Assembly (NCBI GenBank): GCA_963706025.1
Contig: CAVPLM010000003.1
Span: 640,001-704,000 of the forward strand
DNA length: 64,000 bases
Source: an uncultured Actinomycetes bacterium
GTDB taxonomy: Bacteria; Actinomycetota; Thermoleophilia; RBG-16-64-13
Direction: 5' to 3'
Shown here piece after piece: positions 2 to 24,169 of the stretch. The translations under genes and the position numbers were made by a program. A model generated the notes under the pieces. It ran no database searches. It was not told the origin of the DNA and worked only from the letters and a program-made list of their open reading frames with translations. Position 1 is the first letter of the stretch. Each line of letters begins with the position of its first letter.

Positions 2-877
2 GGTTACGATGTGACTATGTACTCCCGCAAGGCCGAGACCCTCGACAAGGCCATGTCTGTGGCCAAAGCGAATCTCGCCACCTTCGTCGAGAGCGGGCTC
101 CTCTCCGAGGACGCGGTCCCCGGGGTTCTCGACCGGATCACGATTACCCAGTCGGTGGAGGAAGCCGGCAAGGACGCGGACTTCGTCATCGAGAGCATCG
201 CCGAGAAGATGGATGCCAAAAAGGCGCTCTACGAGGAACTGGACCGCATCTGCCCCGAGAGGACCATCTTAACCAGCAATACCTCATATCTGAACATCTA
301 CGAGGTCATGCCGGCCGGGCGGCTGCCTCAGACCGTCATCGCTCACTGGTTCGCGCCTCCGCACATCGTCCCCCTGGTCGAGGTCGTCAAGGGGCCGGAG
401 ACGAGTCAGGAGACGGTGGACTTCGTGGTGGAGCTGCTCCAGAAGGTGGAGAGGGTGCCCACGGTGCTGGAAAGGTTCGTCCCCGGGTTCTGTATAAACC
501 GTTTTCTACGGATCATGGGCCGCGAGATCTTCTTCCTGCTGGATAACGGCTACATGACCGCCGACCAGCTCGATCTTGCCGTGAAGGCCAGTATCGTCCC
601 CAGGGCGATGGTGTTGGGCTTCGTCCAGCGCTACGACTTCACCGGGATCGATCTCAGCTATGGCAACCTGCAGAACAAGGATTTCATCGAGCCCCCGATC
701 GACAACAATCCGCGCAGTTTGGTGGAACTCATGGAACGGGGTGAGCTGGGGGTGAAGAGCGGCAAAGGCTTCTTCGACTACAGCGACCGTCCCCTCGAGC
801 AGGTCTTGAGAGAACGGGATGCTGCGCTGATCAAGGTGTTCGAAGACGTGAAGGATCTGATCTACAAACGGGTATAG
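2..877 (+). CDS. 3-hydroxyacyl-CoA dehydrogenase family protein (5' truncated by window edge)
   Basis: Motifs ESIAEKMDAKKALY, TSNTS, HWFAPPHIVPLVEVV, PGFCINR, ELGVKSGKGFFDY. Frame is open from base 2; the Rossmann GxGxxG lies upstream of the window. Confidence 0.9.
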   Translation, partial: GYDVTMYSRKAETLDKAMSVAKANLATFVESGLLSEDAVPGVLDRITITQSVEEAGKDADFVIESIAEKMDAKKALYEELDRICPERTILTSNTSYLNIYEVMPAGRLPQTVIAHWFAPPHIVPLVEVVKGPETSQETVDFVVELLQKVERVPTVLERFVPGFCINRFLRIMGREIFFLLDNGYMTADQLDLAVKASIVPRAMVLGFVQRYDFTGIDLSYGNLQNKDFIEPPIDNNPRSLVELMERGELGVKSGKGFFDYSDRPLEQVLRERDAALIKVFEDVKDLIYKRV

Positions 878-894
878 GAGTCACGGGAGTCACC

Positions 895-1749
895 ATGAAG
901 CTACCTGCAGGCAAAGTCATCATCACCGCCTCCCTCAACGGCGCGTTCGTCACCAAAGAGATGAACCCCAACGTCCCTGAGCAGCCGAACGAGATCGCCC
1001 AAGCCGCGCTGGACTGCTACAACGCCGGGGCCGCCATCGTGCACATCCATGCCCGCGATGAGAAAGGTCAACCCACCGGCACCAAAGAGAAGTTCGAAGA
1101 GATCATGGCTGCCGTCCGGGGCAAGTGCGGCGAGATTATCGTGCAGTTCTCCACCGGCGGAGGGGCGAACCTCACCATCGAGGAGCGCGTTCGTTGCCTC
1201 GACGCCAAACCGGAATCGGCCTCGCTCAACATGGGCACCCTCATGCGTCAGACCGGCGCCTACGCCGGCACTCCCTTCTCCAACCTCACCAAAGACATCG
1301 AGGCTTGGGCGGCCAAGATGAAGGAACTCGACATCAAGCCCGAGATGGAATGCTACTCGCAGAGCATGTACCGGGACGTGAACAATCTGATCAAAAAGGA
1401 ACTGATCAAGCCTCCCTACTACGTGAACTTCGTGCTTGGGATGATGTACCAGGGCGCCATCGAAGCGTCTCCGGAGACGCTGGTGTCCATGTACCAGTTC
1501 CTGCCCGGGAACTGCTACTTCAACTGCACCGCCACCTCCGCGGCCCAACTCCCCGTCACGACGATGGCGATGATCATGGGCGGCTGCGTTCGGGTCGGAC
1601 TCGAAGACAATATCTACTACTCGAAAGGGGCGCTGGCCACGAGCAATGCTCAATTGGTCGAGCGCTCGGCTCGGATCGCCCGGGAGCTGAACATCGAGCC
1701 CGCGACTCCCGATGAAGCCCGGGAGATCCTTGGTATCGTCAAGCGCTGA
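895..1749 (+). CDS. Beta-keto acid cleavage enzyme (BKACE/Kce, DUF849 family)
   Basis: IITASLNGA start, metal-binding HIHARD, STGG, SLNMG and RVGLEDN motifs; RBS GGAG upstream. Confidence 0.92.
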   Translation: MKLPAGKVIITASLNGAFVTKEMNPNVPEQPNEIAQAALDCYNAGAAIVHIHARDEKGQPTGTKEKFEEIMAAVRGKCGEIIVQFSTGGGANLTIEERVRCLDAKPESASLNMGTLMRQTGAYAGTPFSNLTKDIEAWAAKMKELDIKPEMECYSQSMYRDVNNLIKKELIKPPYYVNFVLGMMYQGAIEASPETLVSMYQFLPGNCYFNCTATSAAQLPVTTMAMIMGGCVRVGLEDNIYYSKGALATSNAQLVERSARIARELNIEPATPDEAREILGIVKR

Positions 1750-1798
1750 CGGGCAGGGCCGGCAGGCAGGGCTGACAACAGAACGCCGTCAGGAAAGG

Positions 1799-2587
1799 AT
1801 GGTTGCAGCAACCATGGACGATCTGTTCTCCTTGAAGGGTAAGAACGCCGTCATCGTGGGTGGAGCCGGAGGTATCGGCCGTGGACTGGCGGAAGGGTTC
1901 GTGCGCCACGGCGCTCAGGTGGCCATCGCCGACGTCAACCTGACCGGCTTGGAAGACGCGGTCGCGGAGATCGAAGCCGCGACCGGCCAGAAGGTCAAGG
2001 CCTATCCGGTCGACACCGGCCAGGAGAGCAAAGTCCAGGAACTCGTGGCGAAAACGGTGGGCGACATGGGGCGCGTCCACGTGCTCGTCAACGCCCAGGG
2101 CTTCAATATCAAGGCGCCGGCGACGGAGTTCCCCGTCGAAGACTGGGACAGGCTCTTCTCCGTGAACGTCCGTGGAGTCATGATCTGCTGCAAGCACTTC
2201 GCGGCGCACATGGTCGAGCAGGGGGGCGGCAAGATCATCAACCTCTCGTCGATCCGGGGAGCGCGGGCGGCGTTGGGCGGCAATCTCGCCTATTGCGCCA
2301 GCAAGGGTGCCGTGGACATGCTGACCAGGCAGCTGGCGGTCGAACTGGCGTCGAAGAAGGTGCTGGTCAACGCCATTGCGCCGATCATCACCATCACGCC
2401 CATGACTGAGGAACGGGTCAGGCGGGACGCGGACCGCTACGAGAAGATGCTGGTCAACGTCCCCCTGAACCGTATGGGCACCGTCGCCGATCTGGTGGGA
2501 CCGGCGGTGTTCCTGGCCTCGGCCGCGTCCGACTTCGTAACGGGGACGATCCTGTATCCGGACGGCGGGACGATGGCTTTTGTGTGA
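1799..2587 (+). CDS. SDR family oxidoreductase (phloroglucinol-reductase-like, probably NAD(H)-dependent)
   Basis: GGAGGIG Rossmann motif, YCASK catalytic motif, acidic ADVN after beta2; RBS GGAAAGG before ATG 1799 (alternative ATG 1814). Confidence 0.88.
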   Translation: MVAATMDDLFSLKGKNAVIVGGAGGIGRGLAEGFVRHGAQVAIADVNLTGLEDAVAEIEAATGQKVKAYPVDTGQESKVQELVAKTVGDMGRVHVLVNAQGFNIKAPATEFPVEDWDRLFSVNVRGVMICCKHFAAHMVEQGGGKIINLSSIRGARAALGGNLAYCASKGAVDMLTRQLAVELASKKVLVNAIAPIITITPMTEERVRRDADRYEKMLVNVPLNRMGTVADLVGPAVFLASAASDFVTGTILYPDGGTMAFV

Positions 2588-2645: not shown

Positions 2646-3470
2646 ATGCCAAGACCACGCGTGATGTCCGAGCAACATGAGAAGACGGCGAGCGCCGGTG
2701 ACGGTGCTTTCATCGTCCGGGCCCTGGCCAAAGGGCTCGCGGTGCTGGGGCTGTTCGACGCGGAGAACCGCGATTGGACCCTGGACGAGATCGCGGAGGG
2801 AGCCGGTCTTCCCAGGATGACCGCGTATCGCATGATCCGGACCATGGAAGCGGCGGGTTACCTGGTCCGGGACCCCGTGACCAGTCGCTACCATCTCGGC
2901 CCCGCTCTGTTGGCGACCACCTACATCTCAGAGACCTACTCGGAACTCGTCGCCATCGCGCGGCCCTACCTGCGCGACCTGGCTGCGGAGACGGGGGAGT
3001 CGGCCACCCTGGCAGTGGAGGTGGACGCAGTCGCGGTCAGCGTGGATACGGTGGACACCGCCCGTCCCTTCAGAAGAGAGGTGGCGCAAGGACGGATCAT
3101 CGGCGATACGGCCAACGCGCACGGCAAGGTGTTCGCGGCCTTCAAGTCCGAGGCCGAAAAGGCGGAGATACTCGCCCTGCCGCGTGAACAGACGACGCCC
3201 CACACCATCACCGATCCGGCAGCGCTCGCCGCCGAACTGGAGCTCGTTATACGGGAGGGGATCGCCTTCGACCTCGAGGAGCGGAACATCGGCACGTGTG
3301 CCGTGGCCGCCCCCGTGCGCGACCAATTGGGCAAGGTGATCGCGTCCATATCGCTGGTCGTCCCCACGGGGCGCTTCGGTGACGAGGAGAGATTGCGCTT
3401 TGTACAGGCCACGAAGACCGCCGCCGCTTCTCTTTCTGCCTTTCTGGGCTACTCGAACCGAGAGGGCTAG
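2646..3470 (+). CDS. IclR family transcriptional regulator
   Basis: N-terminal wHTH (LDEIAEGAGLPRMTAYRMIRTM...RYHLGP); C-terminal AHGKVFAA and CAVAAPVRD effector-domain motifs. Confidence 0.93.
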   Translation: MPRPRVMSEQHEKTASAGDGAFIVRALAKGLAVLGLFDAENRDWTLDEIAEGAGLPRMTAYRMIRTMEAAGYLVRDPVTSRYHLGPALLATTYISETYSELVAIARPYLRDLAAETGESATLAVEVDAVAVSVDTVDTARPFRREVAQGRIIGDTANAHGKVFAAFKSEAEKAEILALPREQTTPHTITDPAALAAELELVIREGIAFDLEERNIGTCAVAAPVRDQLGKVIASISLVVPTGRFGDEERLRFVQATKTAAASLSAFLGYSNREG

Positions 3471-3529: not shown

Positions 3530-3567
3530 GAAGCCCCGGGGCCGGCTAACGCCGGCCCCGGGGCTTC
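3530..3567. terminator. Perfect 17-bp stem hairpin between convergent genes (probable bidirectional terminator)
   Basis: GAAGCCCCGGGGCCGGC-TAAC-GCCGGCCCCGGGGCTTC. Confidence 0.7.
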
Positions 3568-3607: not shown

Positions 3608-5827
3608 CTAGATCTCCTGCATCATGGTGGTGGGCACGAAACCGTACTCCTCGTTGCGGAAGACCTCTTCCTTCAGCTCTTCGTCCTTGGCCTTGTACAC
3701 CTTGCAGAGCAGGCAGGTCAGGTCCGGTGAGCCGTACATGGGGTCTAGGTGGTCGTTGCTCGTCAGGACGTTCGGGTTGGAGATCCAGATGCCGTGGTAG
3801 CCCTCGGCCGGCTCCTCCGGGTAGAAGCAGTTGGCCGTGGCCATCAAGACGCCCTTCTTGATGCCGGGGAAGCAACGCAGCTTCTGCCTGATCCTTCCTC
3901 GGGGCGACTCGATCCAGACGATGTCGCCGTCCTCGACGCCGTAGAGCTCTGCCGTCTCCGGATGGAGCTGGCACGTCGGGAACTCCATGAAGCTGCGCAG
4001 CCACGGGATGTTGCGGTACTGCCCGAGGAAATAGAAGGGCTGGCGGTAGCCGCTGCTCATCACGATGGGGTATTCCTTGTACAGCTCGGGGGTCGAGACA
4101 GGGCTTTCCCCGGGCTCGCTATAGACCGGCAGGGGATCGTACCCAAGAGACTCCAGGTGATTCGAGTGGAACTCGAACTTACCCGAGGGGGTCGGGAAGC
4201 CGCCGCCCTCTCTCCAGTAGTCGGTCTTGTACTTGTAATAAACCTGATCGGGGCCCCAGCAGCCGCTCACGAGCTTCTCGCTGAAATCTTTCCACTTCAG
4301 TGGGCCGCCATCGGGGCTCTCTCCCCTCCTGAGCTCGTAGTCGAGCATATCTTCGACGTTGTCCCACCACTTGTCGGGAACGACCCGCCTGCCGATCTCG
4401 TTGAAGATCCAAGCGTCGGACATAGCCTCACCGGGCGGATCGACGACTTTGTTGTGAGCTTCGATCATGAAGCGTGGGTGCATGTCGTAGACGTCGTCCA
4501 ACTCCAGCCAGTGGGCGGCCGGCAGCACGATGTCGGCCGCTTCGGCCATCGGGCCCATGAAGAGATCGGTGTGCGACATGAACTCGACCTTCTCGATGGC
4601 CGCGACAACCTCTTTGGTGTTGGCCATATGCACGATCTGCTGCCCGCCGACACTGAACCACACCTTGACGGGCGCTTCGCCGGCAAGGAGCTTCTTGACC
4701 ATGGTGTCGGGGTTACACGTGCGGGTGGCGCCCATCTTGAACCTATCGCCACCGATGATCTTGGCCTTCATCTCGTCGGTGATCGGCAGCTCGAGGTTGA
4801 AGTCCTCGATGAGGCCGGTGTCCGGCAGCACCCAGCTGATCATGCTGCCTGGGCGCTCGATGTTGCCGGCGAGGCCCATGAGGCAGGTTATGGCCCGGAG
4901 GGTGTGGCCACAGTTGGCCTGCCGCTCGAGGGAGCTGCCTACCTGGATGCAGCCCGGCGTGTCGACGGCCCACATCCGGGCCGCTTCGACGACCTGCTCC
5001 TTAGGGATCCAGCAGGTGTCGGACACCTTCTCGGGCGTCCACTCCTTGACGCGCTCGCGCAGCTCGTCGACGCCGAACGTCCAGTTGTCGACGAACTCCT
5101 TGTCCCAGAGCTCCTCTTCGAAGATGACGTTCATCATGCCCATGGCCAGCGCGCAGTCCGTTCCCGGCCGGGGCTGGATCCAGAGGGAGGCGCGGGTCGC
5201 ATATGCACTTGCCCGCGGGTCGATGATGATGAGGTTCTTGCAGTAGTCCACGGAGCGCATGAACCAGTAACCCATCTCGGAGTCGGCGCTGCTGATCTCG
5301 AGCTGCTTCGCCCACATGATCTGGGTCTTCGGGAACTCGCCGCCCCAGCCGTGGTAGTCGCAGTACAGGCGTCCATAGCCCGTCACGAGGGCGTAGAGGC
5401 CAAGGCGGGGGCTGTGGCATACGTAGCCCGGCGTGATGGCGTTGCCTGTGCTGAGGGAGCGCGCCAGCCGCATCGTGTAGCGGTTATACCCGCGCCCCGT
5501 CCCCTGGGAGATGGCAATGGTCTCCGGTCCGAAGTCCTTGATCGCCGCCTTCATCTTGTCTGCGATCGTGTCGAGGGCCTCATCCCACGAGATCCTCTGC
5601 CACTTACCGTGGCCTTTGGGTCCCACCTGCTTCATGGGGTACTTGAGGCGATAGGGGTTGTCGATGTGCTGGATGCTCGAGAGACCCTTGGAGCACATCG
5701 TGCCCCCGGTCAACGAGTCGGGATTGCCCTCGATGTGGATGACGACCCCGTCTTCCTTGGTCACTCTGACGCCGCAGCCACCATGGCAGCTCTTGCATGT
5801 GGAAAGTACGACTTCTCTTTTTGCCAT
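3608..5827 (-). CDS. Bis-MGD molybdopterin oxidoreductase catalytic subunit, acetylene-hydratase/catechol-dehydroxylase-like (Cys ligand), no Tat signal
   Basis: True start MAKREVV after GAGGAG RBS; CKSCHGGC...MCSKG [4Fe-4S] motif, RISWDEA, GYVCHSPR, ADIVLPAAHWLE, C-terminal molydop-binding domain. Confidence 0.9.
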   Translation of the reverse strand: MAKREVVLSTCKSCHGGCGVRVTKEDGVVIHIEGNPDSLTGGTMCSKGLSSIQHIDNPYRLKYPMKQVGPKGHGKWQRISWDEALDTIADKMKAAIKDFGPETIAISQGTGRGYNRYTMRLARSLSTGNAITPGYVCHSPRLGLYALVTGYGRLYCDYHGWGGEFPKTQIMWAKQLEISSADSEMGYWFMRSVDYCKNLIIIDPRASAYATRASLWIQPRPGTDCALAMGMMNVIFEEELWDKEFVDNWTFGVDELRERVKEWTPEKVSDTCWIPKEQVVEAARMWAVDTPGCIQVGSSLERQANCGHTLRAITCLMGLAGNIERPGSMISWVLPDTGLIEDFNLELPITDEMKAKIIGGDRFKMGATRTCNPDTMVKKLLAGEAPVKVWFSVGGQQIVHMANTKEVVAAIEKVEFMSHTDLFMGPMAEAADIVLPAAHWLELDDVYDMHPRFMIEAHNKVVDPPGEAMSDAWIFNEIGRRVVPDKWWDNVEDMLDYELRRGESPDGGPLKWKDFSEKLVSGCWGPDQVYYKYKTDYWREGGGFPTPSGKFEFHSNHLESLGYDPLPVYSEPGESPVSTPELYKEYPIVMSSGYRQPFYFLGQYRNIPWLRSFMEFPTCQLHPETAELYGVEDGDIVWIESPRGRIRQKLRCFPGIKKGVLMATANCFYPEEPAEGYHGIWISNPNVLTSNDHLDPMYGSPDLTCLLCKVYKAKDEELKEEVFRNEEYGFVPTTMMQEI

Positions 5828-5856
5828 CAGTGTCTCCTCAACACCAAGCTGGTGCT

Positions 5857-6828
5857 CTAGTAGGCGTGGCCTTTGGGTAGGAGGGGCCTGTAGATGCCGA
5901 CCTTCAGTACGCCATACTTGAGGGAGAACGCCCCGATGGTATGGCAGATGATCGCGAAGATGAGCAGTCCTGTCGCGGCCTCTCCGGCGAAGTAGCTGAC
6001 GATCGATATCACGAGCGGAACGATAATACCCAGCCCAACGATGCCCAGCCAGAACACCCAGGCCAGTTTTCCACGGATGAGCTCTTTCACCGACAACTCG
6101 GCTGTGACCGACTGATAGTTCGCGTTCACCAGATAGGACAAGATCAGCAGGGCGTTTATGATCAGCATGATCCGGGTGACCGACTCTGCCGGTCCGATCA
6201 CGTCTTCGCCGGTAACCAGGCCGACGCCCATGATCAAGGCCAAGCCGTCCGCGATGCCCATGAAGAGGAACACGATGGGCAGTAGCCCAGTGTTCCAGAA
6301 GGGGACGCTCTTGCAGTAGCTCATGGCGAATCCGCAGTAGACCCCGGTGAGGACCACGAAGATGCCGGCCAGGGCCATGAAGACCCAGTTGGCGAAGTGG
6401 ACGGCGTCGTAGGCCGAGCCGGAGACCACATCGTAAGCAAGCAGGTACAGCAGCACCAGCTGAATGGCTCCCAAGGCCACAAAGATCACGGTGAAGACTA
6501 TTCCCCGGGCAAACCACGAAGTCTTCCACGCCTTGCTGAAGGGCGGGAAGGTCTTCCAGAAGCGCAGAGGCTTGCCGAGGTAGGCAAAATGCAGGGGCAG
6601 CTTGAAGAACACGATCATGATCCAGCCGAAAAGCGCTCCCCACCAGGCGGTCTTGGGAGCGGTCTCGGTGAAGAATAGCGACACCAGATAGAGACCGGAA
6701 CCGAGAGCCGAGAAGACCTCCGCGATCCAGACGAGTATTCCCTTGCCGTCGATCCATTCGGTCTGAGCCATGGGTTTGATCATCCACTCATGGGGGACCA
6801 TCCATTGACGGGCGGTTCTTGCGTTCAT
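5857..6828 (-). CDS. nrfD: NrfD/PsrC-type membrane anchor
   Basis: Multiple TM helices with YLGKPLRFW, TSWFARG and VPFWNTGLLP motifs; lies between ferredoxin and Mo subunit. Confidence 0.85.
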   Translation of the reverse strand: MNARTARQWMVPHEWMIKPMAQTEWIDGKGILVWIAEVFSALGSGLYLVSLFFTETAPKTAWWGALFGWIMIVFFKLPLHFAYLGKPLRFWKTFPPFSKAWKTSWFARGIVFTVIFVALGAIQLVLLYLLAYDVVSGSAYDAVHFANWVFMALAGIFVVLTGVYCGFAMSYCKSVPFWNTGLLPIVFLFMGIADGLALIMGVGLVTGEDVIGPAESVTRIMLIINALLILSYLVNANYQSVTAELSVKELIRGKLAWVFWLGIVGLGIIVPLVISIVSYFAGEAATGLLIFAIICHTIGAFSLKYGVLKVGIYRPLLPKGHAY

Positions 6829-6844: not shown

Positions 6845-7621
6845 CTAGTCCGCGTTCTTCTTGGCGAGTTTTTCCTTGGACGGAGCGTAGACGGTGCTCA
6901 AGTGCTGGATGTGGCTGCCAGTTTGAGCCTCGATAGGCGCCTTGTTTGAAGGAGCGCCCCCGAGCTTGTAGTCGATGTAGTAAACGGACGGCTCGGTCCC
7001 GTACTCCGCGTGCAGAACGAATCCGGCCTTGTCCCGGATCAGCTTGGAAACGTTGCTGTTGGGATCCTCCAGGTCGCCAAAGGTGAGAGCGCCCGCCTGG
7101 CAGATGTTCACGCAGGCCGGCGTGGCGGCCCGGTCGACACCGGGCACCAGGCCTTTTTCAAGACCGGCGTCGATCCGCTCGGCACAGAAGTTGCACTTCT
7201 GCGTCGTCCCGACCTGGTGCGGATAGAGCTCTTTCCCTTTCTTCTCGAAACCGGTCTGATCGTGCTCGGGGAAGTAGTTCGGGTTCCTCTTTCTGGAAAG
7301 GTACGTGCGGTTCTGATAGGGGCAGGCGATAACGCAGTAACGGCAGCCAAAGCACTTGTCGGAATCGATCGCGACGATACCGTCCTCGCGCTTGTGGGAT
7401 GCCTCAGTGGGGCAGGCATCCACGCACGGCGCCTCCTTGCACTGATTGCATCGGACCGGATAGGTGGTGACGTCGACAGTGATGCCGTCGTCCACTTCGA
7501 GGGCGATGAGCCTCGGCCAGGTCACCCGAAGCGGTAGGAAGTGCTCGATCCTGCACGCGACCACGCACGCGTGGCAGCGGATGCACTTCGCGAGGTTGAT
7601 CACCATTCCATATCTCGCCAT
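6845..7621 (-). CDS. 4x[4Fe-4S] electron-transfer subunit (NrfC/PsrB/DmsB-like)
   Basis: CIRCHACVVAC, CNQCKEAPCVDACP, CFGCRYCVIACP, CNFC...PACVNIC. Confidence 0.92.
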   Translation of the reverse strand: MARYGMVINLAKCIRCHACVVACRIEHFLPLRVTWPRLIALEVDDGITVDVTTYPVRCNQCKEAPCVDACPTEASHKREDGIVAIDSDKCFGCRYCVIACPYQNRTYLSRKRNPNYFPEHDQTGFEKKGKELYPHQVGTTQKCNFCAERIDAGLEKGLVPGVDRAATPACVNICQAGALTFGDLEDPNSNVSKLIRDKAGFVLHAEYGTEPSVYYIDYKLGGAPSNKAPIEAQTGSHIQHLSTVYAPSKEKLAKKNAD

Positions 7622-14675: not shown

Positions 14676-14696
14676 GGAGCCTCCCTTTCGAGAGAC

Positions 14697-14894: not shown

Positions 14895-14933
14895 GAAAAG
14901 ATGGCCCCCCGCCGCTTCTCGCGGCGGGGGGCC
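14895..14933 (-). terminator. Intrinsic terminator downstream of the ferredoxin gene
   Basis: GGCCCCCCGCCGC-TTCTC-GCGGCGGGGGGCC stem with an A-run on its left (U-tract on the minus strand). Confidence 0.65.
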
Positions 14934-15809: not shown

Positions 15810-18437
15810 CTAGTCCCTGCCTCCTTCGATCCAGGCGTCGAAGCGCAGTCCGGCGCCTTGGTCGTATTCCCTGGCGAAAGCTTCGGGGTGATCCCTACGC
15901 CATGCTTCCCATTCCTCGTTCTTGACCTTCTGCACGTCGACCAGGTAACCACTCGTGGCCTGGCCGCACGCGTTCTTGGAAGTGAGCCCGTTCGGGGCGA
16001 TCGTGTTGATGGCCCCACCCCGGTCGACCTTGCCGGGAACCAGGGGATCGTGGCGAGCACCGTGGTCGACGTAGACGACACCGGGCTTGATCCTTTCCCA
16101 GACGCGGGCGCCGACAAGCACGATGCCCCGCTCGTTGAAGACCTTGACGACGTCACCGTCCTTGATGCCGCGCTCGGCGGCGTCGAGCGGGTTGATCCAG
16201 ATGGGTTCGTACCGGTAGCCGTCGAACCCAAGCACTTTGCCGGTGGGTGTCTCGCGGGCCCAGCTGATGTCGTCACCCTGGGCGTGCGTGCGCCAGCGCG
16301 GGTGGTTGGAGATGATGAGCAGCGGAAACATGTCGGCCCGCTCACTGGACAGGGCCTCGTCGTGAGTGACGCCCTTCTCGATCCACTTCGGGAACGGCGG
16401 CCGTTCCTTGTCGTCGGGGAAGTGCTGCGCCAGGCGCTCGGAGTAGAACTCCAGGAGGCCGCTGGGGGTCTTGAGCGGGTTGGTCTTCGGGTCTTCGTAG
16501 AACAAGCGGAAGCCGGGCGGGTCCTTCTCCCAATCATGAGCGGTGGCATAGACGTAGGTCTTCTTCTCGTAGAAGTCCTCCCAGGTGGTGAGCTTGTCCA
16601 TCTTCATGGCGTCGAAGACGACCTTCTGGAGGTCCTTGGTCGTCATGCCGCCGGTGAACTCCTCGCCCTTGCCCAGCTTCTCGGCGATCGCGGCCACGAT
16701 CTCGTAGTCGCTCTTCGACTCGCCGACCGGGAGGACCGACTGCTCCTGGATGGAGACGCTGGCGAAGTGCGGTCCCTGCCGGACCGTGGTGACGATGTCC
16801 TCGACCTCGAGCGTGGTGTTGGCCGGCAGGATGATGTCGGCATAGAGGCAGTCGTTCTCGAGCCAGGGATGCTGAGCGACCACGCACTCGATGCTCGCGT
16901 CCTTCATGGCCTCGATGGTCCAGTTGCCGTGGTTCCAGCAGGTGATGCGGCACGGCGTGTCGGTCCAGATCATGTGGATCGGGACGCCGCCCTTTTCCTT
17001 CGCTATCGGATACGTGTACCGGTCGAATTGCTCCTCGGTCTGGCACTCCTGGCCGCCGCTCCCGTAGAAGACCAGCGGCGCCTTGAGGATGGCGTCCTGG
17101 ATGAGGGTCTTGGGGATGAGTTGCGGGCCCCAGGCATGGACCGTGGTCCAGCACGGCTTGGTGAGGCGCTCGGGCAGTTCGGGGTTGAAGAAGCGGACGC
17201 TTCCCAGCCCTTCCGCCCTGGGCATGCCGAAGTACGTCATCTGGCACTGGTGAACGCCGGGCCCACCGAGCCCCTGCATGCCCAGGAGGACGCATTCCAG
17301 CCGGCCGGGCTCATGCGAGTAGGGGCCCCGGAAGGCTGAGCCGCCGAAGTAGTGGATGATGGAAGTGGTGTTCTTGGCGAACTCGCGCGCCAACGCTTTG
17401 ATGGTCCATTCCGGCACGCCGCACTTGGGGGCGGCCCACTCGGGAGTCTTGGCTATGCCCTCCTCGTCGTTGCCGAGGACGTATTCGGCGACCTTGTCCA
17501 TGCCGACCGCGTGGGTCTTGACGTACTCTTTGTCCCAGGTGCCCTCGGTGAGCCACACATAGATGATGGCCAACTGGAGAGCGGCGTCGGTATTGGGGAG
17601 CACCGGGATCCACTTGTCGGCGTGGACGGCAGCGGCGTAGTTGAGGTCGGGGCAGATATACACCTGCTTGATGCCGGCGCGGGTCCAGAACTGCGAGATG
17701 CGGCTGGCGTACTGCCCCGTGAACCCCCAGGGTGTGGTCTCCTCGTCGCAGCCCCACTTGAGCACCAGGTCGCAGTTCTCCGAGATGTCTTTGATGAGGT
17801 TGGCTGCGGGCGACATCATGCCCTGGAAGCCCTGGCCCCACACGTGCTTGGCCCCCCAGTACCAACCTTCCCAGCTATCCGGGTTGCGGACCTGCTGGGT
17901 GAAGCCGCCCATCATGTCGAGTAGTCGGGCCTGGTGACCGTGCGGCGTGTGGATGGTCTTGTTCTCGCCGTGTCCGTCGCCCTGAGCCAGTACGGCGAGC
18001 GGACCGTACTCCTTGTGTATCCGTCTGATCTCCGCGGCGATGATATCGGTGGCCTCGTCCCAGGAGATCCTCTTGTACTTGCTCTTGCCCCGGTTCTGAG
18101 GGTTCCTTTCCCCGTCGGGGTCCCAGTCGACCCGCTTCATGGGGAACTTGACGCGATTCGGGGAGAAGGTCCTCTTCTTGTAGGCGAGCGAGAAGGGAGC
18201 CGGCAGGGCCTTCGGCAGCGGGCTCAGCGTCTCGCCATTGCGCTCGATGGTCCACGGGTTCAGCTTGTCGAAGTCGTGCTTCCAGTCGTACTTGTACGGT
18301 CTGATCCTGACGGCCTTGCCGTCTTTCACGTCGACGAAACACTCGCCGCCGCCGCCGAGCAGACCGCCCATGGCCAAGTTCTTGATCGTTATCTTGTCGA
18401 CGCTTACATCAACCTTCTTGCGCTCCTCGTCCGTCAT
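15810..18437 (-). CDS. Pyrogallol-phloroglucinol transhydroxylase-family Mo enzyme, large subunit (divergent paralog)
   Basis: MKRVDWDPDGERNPQNRG, NPDSWEGWYWG (Ser ligand), no N-terminal Fe-S Cys motif; start MTDEERKK after AAAGGA RBS. Confidence 0.88.
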   Translation of the reverse strand: MTDEERKKVDVSVDKITIKNLAMGGLLGGGGECFVDVKDGKAVRIRPYKYDWKHDFDKLNPWTIERNGETLSPLPKALPAPFSLAYKKRTFSPNRVKFPMKRVDWDPDGERNPQNRGKSKYKRISWDEATDIIAAEIRRIHKEYGPLAVLAQGDGHGENKTIHTPHGHQARLLDMMGGFTQQVRNPDSWEGWYWGAKHVWGQGFQGMMSPAANLIKDISENCDLVLKWGCDEETTPWGFTGQYASRISQFWTRAGIKQVYICPDLNYAAAVHADKWIPVLPNTDAALQLAIIYVWLTEGTWDKEYVKTHAVGMDKVAEYVLGNDEEGIAKTPEWAAPKCGVPEWTIKALAREFAKNTTSIIHYFGGSAFRGPYSHEPGRLECVLLGMQGLGGPGVHQCQMTYFGMPRAEGLGSVRFFNPELPERLTKPCWTTVHAWGPQLIPKTLIQDAILKAPLVFYGSGGQECQTEEQFDRYTYPIAKEKGGVPIHMIWTDTPCRITCWNHGNWTIEAMKDASIECVVAQHPWLENDCLYADIILPANTTLEVEDIVTTVRQGPHFASVSIQEQSVLPVGESKSDYEIVAAIAEKLGKGEEFTGGMTTKDLQKVVFDAMKMDKLTTWEDFYEKKTYVYATAHDWEKDPPGFRLFYEDPKTNPLKTPSGLLEFYSERLAQHFPDDKERPPFPKWIEKGVTHDEALSSERADMFPLLIISNHPRWRTHAQGDDISWARETPTGKVLGFDGYRYEPIWINPLDAAERGIKDGDVVKVFNERGIVLVGARVWERIKPGVVYVDHGARHDPLVPGKVDRGGAINTIAPNGLTSKNACGQATSGYLVDVQKVKNEEWEAWRRDHPEAFAREYDQGAGLRFDAWIEGGRD

Positions 18438-18538: not shown

Positions 18539-19414
18539 TCAAGGGGCTGGGCCTGGCACCAGGCGCGGGGAACGCCGGCCCGAAGAAGGCCTGTTGGGAT
18601 GGCGTCCGCTCATCCGTGCCGGCAGACTCGGATTCCAGCCCAGATAGGCTGAGAACGAGGCGGCTGTGGCTCTCACCGCCTCGGCGCACAGCGCGCTCTC
18701 GGCCGCGCCGAAGCGTCCCGCCGGGACCACGACCGAGATGGCGGCTATCACCGTTCCCAACTGATCGCGCACCGGGGCACCCACCGCACAGATGCCGGGA
18801 TAGAGCCCTTCGAGGTCGAAGGCCACGTTGTTCTTCGCTATCTGGTCCAGTTCCAGCGCGAGCTCGCGTGCATCGGTGATGGTGTGGGGGGTCCGCTGGG
18901 GACGGGGCTGGGACAGGATCGCGTCCCTTTCCTCCGGCGGCTTGAAGGCGGTGAAGATCTTGCCGTGGACCGACGCGATGTCGCCGAGGATCCGTCCGGG
19001 CGCCGTCTTACGCTTGAAGGGGCGGGTCGTATTGATGATGTCGACGCACACCGGGAACCCGTCGGCCTCGACAGCCAGGGTGACCGACTCCCCCGTTTCC
19101 TGCACGAGCGACTCGAGGAACGGCCGAGCCGAATCCACAAACTCCGAGTGGTCATCCGAGACGTAGGTGATCGCCAGCGTCGCCGGGCCGAGACGGTAGC
19201 GATTGGTCGTAAGGTCGCGGACAAGAAAGGCCATGGATTCGAGCGTCCGCACCATGCGATAGACGGTCATGCGCACGAGGCCGGTCTGCTCGGCCATCTC
19301 GTCGATGGTCCACTCGCGGTGGTCCACGTCGAAAAGGCAGAGGATGGAGAGTCCTCTGGCCAGCGCCCGGACCTGGAACGGGTCGGTCTCATGCAGTCCT
19401 GTGGTCGCGCCCAT
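18539..19414 (-). CDS. IclR family transcriptional regulator (paralog of 2646-3470)
   Basis: VRALARGL...RMTVYRMVRTL...RYRLGPA, VHGKIFTA, CAVGAPVRD; AGGAG RBS before ATG 19414. Confidence 0.92.
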   Translation of the reverse strand: MGATTGLHETDPFQVRALARGLSILCLFDVDHREWTIDEMAEQTGLVRMTVYRMVRTLESMAFLVRDLTTNRYRLGPATLAITYVSDDHSEFVDSARPFLESLVQETGESVTLAVEADGFPVCVDIINTTRPFKRKTAPGRILGDIASVHGKIFTAFKPPEERDAILSQPRPQRTPHTITDARELALELDQIAKNNVAFDLEGLYPGICAVGAPVRDQLGTVIAAISVVVPAGRFGAAESALCAEAVRATAASFSAYLGWNPSLPARMSGRHPNRPSSGRRSPRLVPGPAP

Positions 19415-19501
19415 GTATCTCCTGTAGATCAGAACCGACCTGCAAGGCAGGCGTGCATCTTGCAAATGGACCGTGCCTACTCTACGATATTAGCAGTAAT
19501 G

Positions 19502-19516: not shown

Positions 19517-19574
19517 ATATCGTTTTGTCCCTCGGACTGCCGACCATCTCTGATCTCAGGGGAGCTGATGATTG

Positions 19575-22100
19575 ATGGCTGAAAAGGTTTTCGCGAACTG
19601 TACCAACAGCGGGCCCGTCTCTGTGTATGTCAAGGACGGGAAGATCACGAGGGTCCGTCCCCTGGTGGTGGACGAGAAGGACATGAAGCCCTGGGTGATC
19701 GAGGCCGGCGGGAAGAGTTACTCTCCCCCGAAGAAGGTCACCCTCTCGCCTTACATCCATGCCGAGCGGCGGCGCATCTACTCCGACGAGCGGATCAAAT
19801 ACCCCATGAAGCGGGTCGACTTCGATCCGAACGGCGAGCGCAATCCCCAGAACCGCGGCAAGTCCCGCTACGAGCGTATCTCCTGGGACGAGGCTGCGAC
19901 TCTGGTGGCGACTGAGCTCAAGCGGGTGAAAGACACCTATGGCGGGTCGGCCATCAGTGGCATGACCTCGTCGCATCACAACTGGGGCATCGTCGGCTAC
20001 AAGATGGGGCCGTTCGCCCGCTTCCTCAACATGATGGAAGGCACTCCGGTGCTGGACAACCCCGATAGCTGGGAGGGGTGGCATTGGGGAGCGACGCACA
20101 GCTACGGCTTCTTCTGGCGGCTGGGCATGCCCGAGCCGTACGACATGCTGGGCGACGCCCTGCAGAACGCGGAGATGATCGTCTATTGGTCCAACGACCC
20201 TGACAGCACCCGGGGTACGTACTCCGGCCAGGACTCGGCTCTCTGGCGGCAGTGGCTCAAGGAGAAGGGCGTCAAGATGGTCTTCATCGACCCCTTCTAC
20301 AACTACACCAACGCCGTCATGGGCGGCAAGTGGATCACCCCTCGCCTGGGCACCGACACCGCTGTGGCCATGGCCATCGCCTTCGTCTGGATCACCGAGG
20401 ATACCTACAACAAGGACTACATCCAGAACCGCACCATCGGTTTCGACGAGTTCAAGAAGTACGTCCTCGGCGAGATCGACGGGCAGCCCAAGACCCCGGA
20501 ATGGGCCGCGGAGGAGTCGGGCGTCGATGCCCGCGTGATCCGCACCCTGGCCCGCGAATGGGCCGCCAAGCGCACGGTCTTGTCGGGCGGTTCCCGTGGG
20601 GGGGAAGGCGGCGCCTGCCGGACGGCCTACGGCACCGAGTGGGCTCGTATGATGGTGCTGTTGCAGGCCATGCAGGGACTGGGCGCTCCGGGCCGTAGCA
20701 TCTGGGGTACGACCATGGGGGCGCCTTCAGACACCACCAGGTGGGTCCCCAGCTATGGCGAGCCGGAAGCCCGGATATCGATGTCCACCAAGGCGTGCAA
20801 GTACATCCCGGTGAACACGACCAAGCAGCGCCTGTGGCGTCTCACCGTGCCCGAAGCGATCCTGGACCCGCCGGTGGACTGGTACGGGGAAGGTTTCTGC
20901 GGCCGGAGCCTGGAGCAGCAGTTCATGCACTTCGTGTATCCGATGGAGGGGCACTCCGAGATGAAGCTGTGGTACCGCTACGGAGGCTCCTTCATGGGCA
21001 CCATGAGCGACACCAGCAAGTGGGTGCGGATGTACCAGAGTCCCAAGCTGGAGTTCGTGGTCAACCAGGACATCTGGTACAACAGCGAGACCCGCATGGC
21101 CGACGTGATCCTGCCGGCCTGCACCAACTTCGAGCGCGACGACATGGGCGAGTGGGCAGCCATCAACGGCTACACGGTGCACGCCAGCTGCGGCTGCAAC
21201 TACCGGGTAGTGGTGCGCGAGCAGAAGTGCATCGAGCCCCTGTGGGAATCCAAGTCGGACTACGAGATCTTCGCGCTCATCTTCGAGAAGATGGGCCTTA
21301 GAGACGAGTACACCGACGGCGGCAAGACCGAGGTCGACTGGGTGAAAGCCTTCTTCGACATCTCCGACCTGCCCAAAGACGTGAGCTGGGAGGAGTTCAA
21401 CCGGAAGGGCTACCACATCATCAACATCAACGACGACTACAAGCCGACGCCGGGGATGCGCTGGTTCTACGAGGGGCGCGACTGCGACACTCCCGACTTG
21501 GGTAACCCCAAGCGCCTCACGGAAAAGCGCGCCGAGCTCGGCACGTTCAGCGGCAAGATCGAGTTCGAGTCGGTGAGCCTCAAGCAGTACTTCCCCGACG
21601 ACGAGGAGCGACCGGTGGTGCCGCGCTACATCCCCAGCTGGGAAGGGCACCACACCACCGAGCTCTACGAGAAGTACCCACTGCAGCTCCTTTCCCCGCA
21701 CCCGCGGTTCACCTTCCACTGCCACTACGACAAGCACACCGACTGGCTGAACGATATCCCCGGGCACCGCATCAAGAAGGACGGCTATGCCTGGTGGCCG
21801 GCGCGCCTCAATCCCGAGGACGCGGCCAAGCGGGGCATCAACAGCCACGACATCGTCCGTCTCTACAACGACCGCGGCTCGGTGCTCTGCATCGCCGTGG
21901 TCACCGGACGGGTCAGTCCCGGGGTCATACACTCCTATGCCTCGTCGGCCCTTTACGATCCGCTGATGCCGGGCAACGCGGACTCCGTGGACAAAGGCGG
22001 CTGTGTCAGCATCCTCACCCCGTCGCGCATGCTGTCCAAGAACGCGCCGGGAATGACGCCCAATTCGTGCCTCATCGAGATCGAAAAATGGGAGGGCTAA
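19575..22100 (+). CDS. Pyrogallol-phloroglucinol transhydroxylase-family Mo enzyme, large subunit
   Basis: NCTNSGPVSVYVKDGKI, SSHHNWG, NPDSWEGWHWG, GGACR, LPACTNFER, SPHPRF. Confidence 0.92.
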   Translation: MAEKVFANCTNSGPVSVYVKDGKITRVRPLVVDEKDMKPWVIEAGGKSYSPPKKVTLSPYIHAERRRIYSDERIKYPMKRVDFDPNGERNPQNRGKSRYERISWDEAATLVATELKRVKDTYGGSAISGMTSSHHNWGIVGYKMGPFARFLNMMEGTPVLDNPDSWEGWHWGATHSYGFFWRLGMPEPYDMLGDALQNAEMIVYWSNDPDSTRGTYSGQDSALWRQWLKEKGVKMVFIDPFYNYTNAVMGGKWITPRLGTDTAVAMAIAFVWITEDTYNKDYIQNRTIGFDEFKKYVLGEIDGQPKTPEWAAEESGVDARVIRTLAREWAAKRTVLSGGSRGGEGGACRTAYGTEWARMMVLLQAMQGLGAPGRSIWGTTMGAPSDTTRWVPSYGEPEARISMSTKACKYIPVNTTKQRLWRLTVPEAILDPPVDWYGEGFCGRSLEQQFMHFVYPMEGHSEMKLWYRYGGSFMGTMSDTSKWVRMYQSPKLEFVVNQDIWYNSETRMADVILPACTNFERDDMGEWAAINGYTVHASCGCNYRVVVREQKCIEPLWESKSDYEIFALIFEKMGLRDEYTDGGKTEVDWVKAFFDISDLPKDVSWEEFNRKGYHIININDDYKPTPGMRWFYEGRDCDTPDLGNPKRLTEKRAELGTFSGKIEFESVSLKQYFPDDEERPVVPRYIPSWEGHHTTELYEKYPLQLLSPHPRFTFHCHYDKHTDWLNDIPGHRIKKDGYAWWPARLNPEDAAKRGINSHDIVRLYNDRGSVLCIAVVTGRVSPGVIHSYASSALYDPLMPGNADSVDKGGCVSILTPSRMLSKNAPGMTPNSCLIEIEKWEG

Positions 22101-22104
22101 GATC

Positions 22105-22944
22105 ATGGCGCGCCTGAGCCTGCTCATCGACGTGACCAAGTGCAGCGGTTGCCACAACTGCTTCCTGGCCTGCCGCGACGAGTACTACGACAACGACTAC
22201 AGCCCCTACTCTGCCCCCCAGCCTCTCGAAGGTCAGTTCTGGATGCAGGTCAAGGAGATAGAGCGAGGCAGCTATCCCAAGCCCAAGCTCGACTACATCC
22301 CTCTTCCCTGTCAGCACTGTGAGACGGCTCCCTGCGTGGAAGTCGCCGCGGACGAAGCCGTGTATCGTCGCAAAGACGGCATCGTGTTGATCGACCCGCA
22401 GAAGTCAAAGGGCCAGAAAGCGATCGTCAATTCCTGTCCCTACCGGGTGGTCTTCTGGAACGCGGAGCTCGAGATACCGCAGAAGTGCACCCTGTGTGCC
22501 CATCGGCTGGACGAAGGCGCCAAGGAGCCGCGCTGCGTAGAGGCCTGCCCCACCGGCGCGTTGGTGTTCGGCGACCTGGACGACCCGAGCAGCGAGATCG
22601 CCAAGCTCTCGGCCTCAATGAAGGTCGAGACCTATCATCCTGAGTACAACGCGGCTCCCCTGGTCAAGTACGTGGGCATCCCCAAACGCTTCGTCGTCGG
22701 CGAAGTGGTGCGGCGAGATGTCCCCGAGGAGTGTGCTGAGGGGGTTCTGATCGCGCTCGAAGGCGGCGGCGCGAAGCTGAAGACCCGCTCGGACAGCTAC
22801 GGCGACTTCGAATTCGAAGGCCTTGAAAGGAACACGGCCTATCGCGTCCGGGTCGAGCTCGACGGCTACGCGCCGCAGGAGTTCGATGTCGTCACGCAGA
22901 AGGATGTGGACCTGGGCGAGATCGTCCTGGACCCAGTGAGCTGA
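22105..22944 (+). CDS. Transhydroxylase beta subunit-like Fe-S protein (three-cluster type)
   Basis: CSGCHNCFLAC, CQHCETAPC, KSKGQKAIVNSCPY (one cluster motif lost), CTLC..RCVEACP; SDSYGDFEF C-terminal domain. Confidence 0.9.
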   Translation: MARLSLLIDVTKCSGCHNCFLACRDEYYDNDYSPYSAPQPLEGQFWMQVKEIERGSYPKPKLDYIPLPCQHCETAPCVEVAADEAVYRRKDGIVLIDPQKSKGQKAIVNSCPYRVVFWNAELEIPQKCTLCAHRLDEGAKEPRCVEACPTGALVFGDLDDPSSEIAKLSASMKVETYHPEYNAAPLVKYVGIPKRFVVGEVVRRDVPEECAEGVLIALEGGGAKLKTRSDSYGDFEFEGLERNTAYRVRVELDGYAPQEFDVVTQKDVDLGEIVLDPVS

Positions 22945-22969
22945 TGACAAACGACCCGGGAAAGGTCTC

Positions 22970-24169
22970 ATGAACGAGGTAGTGATCGTCAGCGCCGTGA
23001 GAACGGCGGTGGGTAGACTGGGTGGAGGTCTCAAGGACGTCGAGCCGGAAGACCTCGCGAAGCTGGTCATCATAGAAGCCCTGGCGCGGGCTCAGGTGGA
23101 ACCGGAAGCGGTCGACGAGGTCATCATGGGCCAGACCAAGCAGAGCGCCGACGCCGCCAACCTGGCCCGGGTGGCCGCGCTGAAAGCGGGCCTACCGGTG
23201 GAGGTGCCGGCCTACACGGTGATGCGGCAGTGCGGTTCGGGCCTGCAGGCCGTCCACAACGCGGCGGAGAGCATCATGATCGGCCAAGCCGACATCGTCG
23301 TGGCGGGCGGGGTCGAGAACATGAGCAAGGCCCCCTACTATTTGAGAAGCGCCCGGTACGGCTACGGGGCGGGCAACGCGGTGCTGGTGGACTCCAACAC
23401 CGAGAGCCAGCCGCGTTCGCAGCCGTATGAGGTCTACGGCAACCTGACCATGGGTCTCACGGCCGAGAACCTGGCGGTCAAGTACGGCATCAGCCGGGAG
23501 GAACAGGACGCCTTTTCCCTCCAGAGCCAGGAGAGGGCTTTCGCGGCCATCGAATCAGGCCGGTTCAAGGACGAGATCGTGCCGGTGGAGATCCCGCAGC
23601 GGAAAGGCGCGCCGTTGGTGTTCGACACCGACGAGCATCCACGCAGGAGCACCCTTGAGGGGTTGGCCGCGCTGCCCGCGGTGTTCAAGGAGGGCGGCAC
23701 GGTGACCGCGGGGAACGCCTCGGGCCGCAACGACGGCGCGGCCTGCACCGTCGTCATGTCGGCGAAGGAGGCGTCTAGAAGAGGTCTCAAGCCGATGGCG
23801 ACCATCAGGAGCATGGCTGTAGCCGGGGTGCCGCCGGAGATCATGGGCATCGGACCGGCGCCTGCCAGCCGCAAAGCCCTCGCCCGGGCAGGTCTGACCT
23901 TGGACGACATCGGACTGATCGAACTCAACGAGGCCTTCGCTGCCCAGGCTCTCTCGGTGGTCAAAGAATTGGGCATCGGCGACCGTATGGCCGAGTTGAA
24001 CGTGAACGGTGGGGCCATTGCTCTCGGACACCCTCTGGGGTGTTCCGGGGCCCGGATATTCACCACCCTGCTCTACGAGATGAAGAAGCGCGGGACCCGC
24101 TACGGGCTGGCGACGCTGTGCATCGCCGGGGGTCAGGGGATAGCGACCGTCGTCGAAGCTGGGGAATAG
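22970..24169 (+). CDS. Thiolase (acetyl-CoA C-acyltransferase)
   Basis: QCGSG, NEAF, GHPLG, CIAGGQG. Confidence 0.95.
   Translation: MNEVVIVSAVRTAVGRLGGGLKDVEPEDLAKLVIIEALARAQVEPEAVDEVIMGQTKQSADAANLARVAALKAGLPVEVPAYTVMRQCGSGLQAVHNAAESIMIGQADIVVAGGVENMSKAPYYLRSARYGYGAGNAVLVDSNTESQPRSQPYEVYGNLTMGLTAENLAVKYGISREEQDAFSLQSQERAFAAIESGRFKDEIVPVEIPQRKGAPLVFDTDEHPRRSTLEGLAALPAVFKEGGTVTAGNASGRNDGAACTVVMSAKEASRRGLKPMATIRSMAVAGVPPEIMGIGPAPASRKALARAGLTLDDIGLIELNEAFAAQALSVVKELGIGDRMAELNVNGGAIALGHPLGCSGARIFTTLLYEMKKRGTRYGLATLCIAGGQGIATVVEAGE

Follow-up and report, generated by a model that had tools for sequence, protein, structure and literature searches.

What do the genes in the first 24,169 nucleotides of the window (by which we mean the whole 64,000-nucleotide stretch under study, G000:C3:640001-704000, where G000 is the source genome and C3, C17 and so forth are its contigs) do together, and do they serve one pathway at all? 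An earlier note on this DNA had listed three bis-molybdopterin guanine dinucleotide (bis-MGD) Mo enzymes, an aldehyde:ferredoxin oxidoreductase (AOR), an aminotransferase, a metallo-beta-lactamase (MBL)-fold hydrolase, two short-chain dehydrogenases/reductases (SDRs), a beta-keto-acid cleavage enzyme (BKACE), a 3-hydroxyacyl-CoA dehydrogenase (3HCDH), a thiolase and two paralogous IclR regulators, and had read them as an integrated island for the degradation of polyphenols and aromatic amines without oxygen. Every one of these classes was recovered within positions 1-24169 from the listing of open reading frames (ORFs) and from scans with Pfam and NCBIfam. With moderate confidence, we view the region, which comes from an uncultured sediment actinobacterium, as a conserved, IclR-regulated supercluster of several operons, which would encode a second, paralogous pathway of the pyrogallol/phloroglucinol type acting without oxygen on a related phenol among the polyhydroxybenzenes of plant origin. 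The source genome comprises 3.66 Mb in 30 contigs (92% complete, 7% contaminated), and the label "Thermoleophilia-like" given to it earlier fits the titles of the public loci nearest to the window, namely Actinomycetes, Thermoleophilia, Gaiellales or RBG_16_64_13. The features of the region are as follows.

1..877, + strand: 3HCDH-family dehydrogenase gene, TfD-like (PF02737, PF00725)
895..1749, + strand: BKACE, TAL-like and not Kce (PF05853, 313 bits)
1829..2587, + strand: SDR1, of the NAD type with Asp after strand beta2 (adh_short_C2, 195 bits)
2646..3470, + strand: IclR-family regulator 1, IclR1 (PF09339, PF01614)
3530..3567: terminator-like GC hairpin with a 17-bp stem, between the convergent IclR1 and Mo-enzyme genes
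3608..5827, - strand: bis-MGD catalytic subunit related to acetylene hydratase and catechol dehydroxylases (PF04879 (Fe4S4), PF00384, PF01568)
5857..6828, - strand: NrfD/PsrC-type integral membrane subunit (PF03916, 71 bits) with about 8-10 hydrophobic segments
6845..7621, - strand: four-cluster-type 4Fe-4S electron-transfer subunit, DsrO/ArrB-like (Fer4_11 and related; DsrO model 174 bits, below the cut-off of 200)
7622..7937: AT-rich control region with promoter-like hexamers, between the divergent Mo-complex and AOR operons
7938..9818, + strand: AOR-family aldehyde:ferredoxin oxidoreductase (PF02730, PF01314)
9878..11254, + strand: class-III aminotransferase, GABA/acetylornithine-aminotransferase-like (PF00202, 319 bits; PRK05769 388, below 552)
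11355..12281, + strand: uncharacterised MBL-fold metallo-hydrolase with an HxHxDH motif (PF00753)
12348..13163, + strand: SDR2, of the NADP type with GRRR after strand beta2 (adh_short_C2, 224 bits)
13423..14902: strain-specific insertion with a helix-turn-helix (HTH) and SocA/Panacea antitoxin-like gene (PF01381, PF13274)
14991..15809, - strand: BthL-like small subunit 1 (Fer4_11, CarboxypepD_reg)
15810..18371, - strand: AthL-like large subunit 1, AthL1 (PF21423, PF00384, PF01568)
18539..19465, - strand: IclR-family regulator 2, IclR2 (PF09339, PF01614)
19572..22100, + strand: AthL-like large subunit 2, AthL2 (884 bits to 4v4c_A)
22105..22944, + strand: BthL-like small subunit 2 (Fer4_11, CarboxypepD_reg)
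22970..24169, + strand: acetyl-CoA C-acetyltransferase, a thiolase (PF00108, PF02803; TIGR01930 486 bits, above the cut-off of 240)

The genes are arranged in alternating units: 3HCDH, BKACE, SDR1 and IclR1 on the forward strand; the 4Fe-4S, NrfD and bis-MGD catalytic subunits of the Mo complex on the reverse strand; AOR, aminotransferase, MBL-fold hydrolase and SDR2 forward; IclR2, AthL1 and BthL1 reverse; and AthL2, BthL2 and the thiolase forward. The two regulators share 57% identity over 249 amino acids. Beyond the classes listed in the earlier note, the region holds an NrfD-type membrane anchor (5857-6828), three Fe-S subunits, among them the 4Fe-4S subunit at 6845-7621, and the small toxin-antitoxin-like HTH/Panacea insertion at 13423-14902. 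The 5' end of the 3HCDH gene is cut by the start of the window, the full ORF (L001:1370-2377) opening 130 bp further upstream; the ORF of SDR1 opens at 1712, and its start, though uncertain, is likely near 1829.

A canonical counterpart of this set was located on C17 (approximately 20.9-42.3 kb), where the order BKACE-SDR-3HCDH-cyclase-AthL(1297 bits)-BthL is followed by four AthL1-type genes and an IclR gene is present. The window set parallels the C17 cluster gene for gene, except that the MBL-fold hydrolase stands in place of the cyclase. According to PMC10470551, the published route proceeds through a transhydroxylase, PGR (an NADPH-dependent SDR), DPGC (an Mn-dependent dihydrophloroglucinol cyclohydrolase of the cyclase family), TfD (of the 3HCDH family, but lacking the CoA-contact residues Lys56 and Asn221), TAL (a BKACE) and a thiolase. 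The cluster of Clostridium scatologenes, as presented in that paper (Zhou et al., mBio 2023, PMC10470551), shares with the window an SDR, a 3HCDH-family dehydrogenase, a BKACE without the Kce glutamate, a thiolase and a transcriptional regulator; in contrast to it, the window lacks a cyclase-family DPGC and possesses two SDRs and an MBL-fold hydrolase, and no CoA-transferase gene was seen in the window. The logic of hydroxyl transfer, ring reduction, hydrolysis and beta-keto cleavage to acetyl-CoA put forward in the earlier note fits, but its remark that it knew of no such combination among described pathways of this lineage does not hold, since the combination is that of the published pyrogallol/phloroglucinol route (PMC10470551), with a canonical copy on C17. 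Nor is the lineage new to such chemistry: in a study of peat microcosms, metagenome-assembled genomes (MAGs) of the genus RBG-16-64-13 were already reported as polyphenol degraders expressing PGR/pgthAB and were among the catechin degraders, with PGR/pgthAB expressed in 57 MAGs (PMC12203004). Literature searches, supplements excluded, returned no description of an MBL-containing, cyclase-less cluster or of an approximately twenty-fold AthL expansion in Actinomycetota.

Compared with the C17 cluster, the 3HCDH, BKACE and SDR1 of the window are 36%, 35% and 39% identical, respectively. With identities to the canonical set of no more than 35-39%, these lower-pathway enzymes probably act on another, related phenol. 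The BKACE carries a Phe at the position aligned with the amine-binding Glu14 of Kce, where the characterized triacetate enzyme CsTAL has another bulky hydrophobic residue, Trp16 (PMC10470551). Assignment as Kce, that is, as an enzyme of lysine fermentation, was rejected because of this replacement of Glu14; the protein scored below the NCBIfam cut-offs for both Kce (NF052387, 296 < 382) and 3,5-dioxohexanoate:acetyl-CoA transferase (NF053538, 220 < 430). In the alignment, SDR1 and the C17 SDR possess the Asp typical of NAD use, whereas SDR2 displays the T-G-R-R-R typical of NADP use. G000 as a whole has 6-7 genes for BKACE, 6 for cyclases and no fewer than nine AOR paralogues. A third BKACE-SDR-3HCDH set, at G000:C5:1104546-1107201, is separated by about 10.5 kb from two AthL2-type genes; the alignments of its SDR and 3HCDH are partial (168/266 and 176/320 residues), and the set may be decayed.

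To what extent the grouping is conserved was assessed by searching for the MBL protein in 41 related genomes and mapping the 19 proteins of the window onto the neighbourhoods of the matches. The protein was present in 12 of the 41, all in the window's own family (11 of the 24 relatives there, but none of the 16 genomes from the remaining families of the class). In one genome of the same genus (G003), all 19 window proteins were found at 80-95% identity, 18 of them in a single 24.5 kb block in the same order, with the aminotransferase lying 5.5 kb outside the block. The same gene order was observed in G002 and G001, several genes being fragmented in the latter. In two genomes of another genus (G007 and G024), 16/19 proteins lie within about 31 kb (about 24 kb without an outlying B3_4 gene) in rearranged order; this block lacks AthL1/BthL1 and SDR2, the MBL-SDR2 pair is located elsewhere and the BKACE is a different one (38%).

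When public genomes were scanned with the MBL protein, 80 loci were retained, 43 with Actinomycetota titles and 37 from other phyla. Among the 43, which are not independent in that several share a genome or belong to close relatives, SDR2 was directly downstream of the MBL gene in 20, and the genes found near it were an AthL-type gene (15/43), the trio of 3HCDH, BKACE and SDR1 (12/43), a Mo-complex subunit (10/43), AOR (9/43), the thiolase (6/43) and the aminotransferase (3/43). One locus (L052) displayed a compact form of 12 genes, 3HCDH-BKACE-SDR1-IclR1-MBL-SDR2 / BthL1-AthL1-IclR2 / AthL2-BthL2-thiolase, with gaps of 8-129 bp and without AOR, aminotransferase or Mo complex. The line 3HCDH-BKACE-SDR1-IclR1-MBL-SDR2 recurs as an operon with gaps of 14-67 bp in several genomes, and in four loci (L054, L055, L056 and L058) 3HCDH is preceded by the Mo complex in divergent orientation; in other genera, the MBL-SDR2 pair sits beside an AthL/BthL pair (L100, L107). 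On the basis of the compact form and of the placement of the Mo complex in those four loci, the core of the system is 12 genes, to which the Mo complex is a frequent, the AOR a regular and the aminotransferase an occasional companion. The earlier note had held that modules without shared conservation would speak against a single system; we found them co-conserved across genomes and genera.

Both large subunits that presumably begin the route were compared with AthL of the Pelobacter acidigallici pyrogallol-phloroglucinol transhydroxylase (PDB 4v4c/4v4d/4v4e), to which AthL2 is a close and AthL1 a divergent paralogue. AthL2 aligned over its full length (884 bits, residues 8-842) and AthL1 over residues 13-829 with 410 bits, and the AhtL-like first domain PF21423 scored 74 and 35 bits, respectively, above its cut-off of 27. 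His144, Asp174 and Ser175 of the P. acidigallici protein are aligned and identical in both; we take Ser175, together with Asp174 and His144, to be the Mo ligand. Arg153 and Tyr404, which we assume to line the pocket for substrate and cosubstrate, are both retained in the C17 orthologue, which thus has all five residues, and AthL2 retains Tyr404 with Lys in place of Arg153. Neither AthL1 nor AthL2 possesses a twin-arginine (TAT) signal, as is also the case for the P. acidigallici large subunit. The BthL-like genes abut their partners with gaps of 0 bp (pair 1) and 4 bp (pair 2), and both encode Fe-S clusters followed by a C-terminal beta-sandwich domain, the same build as that of the P. acidigallici small subunit.

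The best transhydroxylase match in G000 is, however, the C17 gene, with 1297 bits to 4v4c versus 884 and 410 for the window genes, and neither AthL1 nor AthL2 is the orthologue of the P. acidigallici enzyme in this genome; a tree placed both outside the nine-member clade of the C17 gene. The 3.66 Mb genome contains 24 matches to the AthL first domain above the cut-off, 19 of which are full-length ORFs that fall into three clades: 9 around the C17 orthologue, 3 with AthL2 and 7 with AthL1. With the four AthL1-type genes of C17, AthL1 shares 51-53% identity. Paralogues of the AthL1 and AthL2 types travel together, as seen in the window and again at G000:C3:509804-519332 (L132), where an AthL2-type/BthL pair (62%, 58%) and an AthL1-type/BthL pair (62%, 70%) are convergent. 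Three AthL copies (C1:11253, C29:11603 and C8:171119) hardly differ from one another, perhaps because of a recent duplication or of the 7% contamination. The window itself contains a third AthL-like large subunit at 60313-62910 (-), which belongs to the true-transhydroxylase clade and is 52% identical to AthL2; it has no adjoining small-subunit gene, directly follows the ribosomal/secY/rpoA/truA block and is neighboured by a TetR gene at 63110-63763 (+). Two AthL operons had already been reported for sediment Chloroflexi in 2013 (PMC3971608).

From these families, their linkage and the parallel with C17 we infer the following steps and their order, the substrates being assigned by analogy. AthL1/BthL1 and AthL2/BthL2 would shuffle the ring hydroxyls to give a 1,3,5-type, phloroglucinol-like ring, which an SDR would reduce; a hydrolase would then open the ring, for which the MBL-fold enzyme with SDR2 is the leading candidate and a DPGC from another part of the genome the alternative. 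The 3HCDH would oxidize the resulting hydroxy-oxo acid, BKACE would cleave the beta-keto acid with acetyl-CoA and the thiolase would yield acetyl-CoA.

The step of ring opening is where the window and the canonical route part. No PF04199 cyclase gene is present in the window, the six of G000 all lying elsewhere, and none of the 80 loci showed a cyclase within 10 kb of the MBL gene. The MBL protein, which has 714 homologues at E<=1e-10, carries the HxHxDH motif and invariant H61, H63, D65, H66, D162 and H202, and its AF2 model reached a pLDDT of 87.5. We favour it for ring opening because it sits within the operon line and has a fixed partner in SDR2. A bolder version of this proposal, which we regard as conceivable yet rather doubtful, is that the MBL-fold enzyme and the NADP-type SDR2 are a non-homologous replacement of the PGR/DPGC pair, with the former acting as a C-C (retro-Claisen) hydrolase on the ring of a reduced polyhydroxybenzene. 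The second phloroglucinol-type pathway in which it would do so would receive its substrates from two new specificities within the greatly expanded transhydroxylase family. A paralogue of the MBL protein (61%) occurs on C26 (L131, G000:C26:26001-44000, 6962-15034), where it follows an acetylene-hydratase-like Mo gene that is read in two overlapping frames and is possibly frameshifted; after the paralogue come a beta-hydroxyacid dehydrogenase gene and then genes for a Zn-ADH, a DUF1847 protein and an SDR, with an MFS transporter and a RidA-like gene upstream.

Several observations weigh against a second phenol pathway of this kind and against the part given in it to the MBL-fold enzyme. In AthL1, Arg153 and Tyr404 of 4v4c_A are replaced by Pro and Arg, respectively; none of the enzymes has an assigned substrate, and all NCBIfam equivalog cut-offs for the lower-pathway enzymes were missed; and the PGR motif TR(S/N) is absent, in the form given in PMC10470551, from SDR1 and SDR2. 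A shared IclR operator was sought by local alignment of six intergenic regions, and no pair scored above shuffled controls: the best pair reached a z of 2.5, with 5/200 shuffles reaching its score, and the 7-mer GATATCG was the only word common to two control regions. A Foldseek search with the MBL model returned generic MBL matches and no functional analogue, the nearest structures being an uncharacterized MBL protein and true beta-lactamases at 15-20% identity; attempts to derive a function from a PDB sequence search, the AlphaFold model with Foldseek and a protein atlas all gave generic MBL matches only and pointed to no function. MBL orthologues 70-79% identical to the window protein exist across Actinomycetota, Acidobacteriota, Dehalococcoidia, Desulfatiglans and others, and at all 37 loci from other phyla the gene stands in an unrelated context with no island gene nearby, which fits a function more general than ring opening. 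The 45 neighbouring proteins at 10 of these loci revealed no shared context; among them were two MFS transporters, two instances of GntR/Band7 and a single partial SDR (L115). Lastly, a C17-type DPGC cyclase orthologue was found in 9/11 MBL-bearing relatives as well as in G000, the match in G013 being only 67% identical and carrying an internal stop codon, and ring opening could therefore take place in trans.

Some of these findings would suit a rival explanation in which the island is a duplicate pyrogallol/phloroglucinol route that uses the cyclase-family DPGC of C17 or C14 in trans, while MBL-SDR2 acts elsewhere, for instance in lactone or thioester hydrolysis or in detoxification. Besides the co-occurring cyclase and the other-phyla orthologues without pathway context, the C26 paralogue agrees with it, sitting as it does by a Mo gene and a beta-hydroxyacid dehydrogenase with no BKACE set. 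We nevertheless judge it unlikely: identities of 35-39% between the lower-pathway paralogues and the canonical enzymes argue for other substrates, MBL-SDR2 lies inside the operon line in several genomes, and no C17-type DPGC match was obtained in G002 (94% complete) or G024 (76% complete), both of which bear the island. Phyletic complementarity of MBL and cyclase was also tried as a criterion and rejected, since the cyclase Pfam family occurs in 30/31 genomes of the family and is uninformative, and most genomes with the MBL gene have the C17-type orthologue as well.

The second phenol pathway that we favour is frequently accompanied by the third molybdoenzyme, encoded by the reverse-strand operon at 3608-7621. 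The best PDB match of its catalytic subunit is acetylene hydratase (2e7z, 293 bits; the next solved family scored 175 bits), and the Cys metal ligand and the cluster cysteines of that enzyme are retained, whereas its Asp13 is His in the window protein. We take Asp13, beside a cluster cysteine, to be catalytic in acetylene hydratase, and the enzyme presumably stands alone and is non-redox; the operon in the window, unlike it, encodes Fe-S and NrfD partners. No TAT signal was found in the catalytic subunit, whose N-terminus runs straight into the Fe-S Cys motif without RR, or in the Fe-S partner, and the active site is therefore predicted to face the cytoplasm. We regard the complex as a predicted cytoplasm-facing, quinone-linked redox enzyme that probably removes or adds a ring hydroxyl. 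The Eggerthella and Gordonibacter catechol dehydroxylases (Dadh, Hcdh, Cadh, Dodh, Cldh) likewise have acetylene hydratase as their nearest relative, and those of E. lenta have Fe-S and membrane partners and are TAT-exported, according to PMC7028382. The window enzyme is like the E. lenta enzymes in having a 4Fe-4S partner and a membrane subunit, unlike them in lacking a TAT signal and in having an active site predicted to face the cytoplasm, and unlike the soluble two-subunit Gordonibacter type in having an NrfD anchor (PMC7028382). The complex thus resembles, through this shared nearest relative, the catechol dehydroxylase class in a new layout, cytoplasm-facing and NrfD-anchored, and the label "dehydroxylase-like" that the earlier note had given it appears fair as far as sequence can tell.

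The AOR aligned over its full length, with both AFOR domains, to the tungsten AORs (PDB 1aor, 8c0z and 9mqx) at 306-347 bits. A role as a BamB-type ring reductase was rejected on the scores, 189 bits to BamB (4z3w) versus 335 to 1aor and 347 to 9mqx; the enzyme, a regular companion of the core, probably oxidizes an aldehyde. In the window, AOR, aminotransferase, MBL and SDR2 genes are arranged head to tail with gaps of 59-100 bp. An alanine dehydrogenase gene adjoins AOR in three genomes of the same genus (L032:1386-2765(-), L034:18015-19130(+) and L046:17349-18455(+)), lying between AOR and the aminotransferase in two of them; no such gene is present in the window, where only 59 bp separate AOR from the aminotransferase. 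The aminotransferase occurs within 10 kb of the MBL gene at 3/43 actinobacterial loci, its place varies between genomes and it is an occasional neighbour that is loosely linked to the cluster. The branch from amine through aldehyde to acid proposed in the earlier note hence gains something from the alanine dehydrogenases of the sister genomes, but an enzyme of the GABA/acetylornithine type found at so few loci offers no pointer to aromatic amines.

Could the genes be no more than neighbours? In that case 3HCDH-BKACE-SDR, a Liv-type transporter, the aminotransferase and the AOR would serve a non-aromatic beta-hydroxy or amino acid (carnitine-like, lysine-derived or similar) and would merely lie beside transhydroxylase genes. 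BKACE enzymes are in general paired with 3HCDH-family dehydrogenases, the genes directly upstream encode a Liv-type ABC transporter, and no equivalog cut-off was reached, all of which would suit such a role. We find it improbable, as the same trio stands with a cyclase and a true transhydroxylase on C17, the C5 set lies near two AthL2-type genes (with the SDR and 3HCDH aligned only in part), linkage to AthL/BthL holds across several genera and the BKACE is without the amine-binding Glu. Weakest, and in our estimation very improbable, is the single linear route of the earlier note, in which an aromatic amine would become an aldehyde and, through AOR, an acid whose ring would be dehydroxylated or transhydroxylated, reduced, hydrolysed and cleaved to acetyl-CoA: the head-to-tail order from AOR to SDR2, the alanine dehydrogenases beside AOR in three same-genus genomes, a typical amine:pyruvate transamination set, and the resemblance of the acetylene-hydratase-related Mo enzyme to a class that includes dopamine dehydroxylase all speak for it, but the aminotransferase is nearest to GABA/acetylornithine types, is seldom near MBL and lies outside the block in G003, the compact 12-gene form does without AOR, aminotransferase and Mo complex, and the window has no alanine dehydrogenase.

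Between and around these genes, further features were noted. In the control region at 7622-7937, promoter-like hexamers are placed back to back at 7744-7772(+) and 7765-7738(-). The 1.48 kb insertion at 13423-14902 contains the HTH/Panacea gene split over the frames 14190-14675 and 13883-14332 (-), together with small ORFs without family, and lies just past a strong terminator hairpin (14903-14933) of BthL1. A DNA contig of sequencing run X2 joins 13422 to 14903 without it, and in G003 there are 185 bp at this place; because of the X2 junction, the element is a strain-specific insertion outside the pathway. The notion of a mobile island was rejected, given an even GC content of 0.59-0.67, no tRNA within 1-27 kb and no integrase seen there; the block is a gene cluster of the chromosome that adjoins the ribosomal-protein region. 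Upstream, L005 (G000:C3:620001-640000) encodes at 9499-19670 an ADP-forming acyl-CoA synthetase, an indolepyruvate-type 2-oxoacid:ferredoxin oxidoreductase (two genes) and the five-gene Liv-type ABC transporter, whose binding-protein gene is followed by a hairpin and ends about 200 bp before 3HCDH. Downstream of the thiolase, at 24312-26551, lie a B3/4-domain gene (-) and a homologue of the LarA-like nickel-pincer racemase (312 bits, below the malate racemase cut-off of 500). Both also follow the thiolase in G001 and G003, and the LarA gene is found in G007 too; they may be mere neighbours toward the tRNA and the nusG/ribosomal block that begins at 27.3 kb.

Near-identical DNA was detected in freshwater and sediment metagenomes, with at least half of the sampled words found in 7 runs from 3 studies, one of which may be the source sample. 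Contigs from a metatranscriptome run touch the AOR, aminotransferase, SDR2, AthL1, IclR2 and AthL2 genes. Only 5/186 contigs are at least 99% alike, most contigs of the two RNA-labelled runs being 90-95% alike, and the metatranscriptome run may contain DNA; these contigs give a weak hint of expression of the island genes and demonstrate neither transcription nor co-induction.

The anaerobic turnover of phenols derived from tannins and flavonoids bears on carbon storage in sediment and peat, the "enzyme latch" discussed in PMC10470551. In the present lineage, at least two lower pathways run in parallel and the transhydroxylase paralogues number about twenty; labelling all of these paralogues "pyrogallol transhydroxylase", with the single substrate that the name implies, is almost certainly an oversimplification. 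The AthL1-type enzymes, the AthL2-type enzymes and the NrfD-linked, acetylene-hydratase-like complex predicted to face the cytoplasm are offered as three types of candidate molybdoenzyme, and the MBL-SDR2 pair as a concrete candidate for ring opening, a step for which the cluster, though conserved in several genera, lacks the usual gene.

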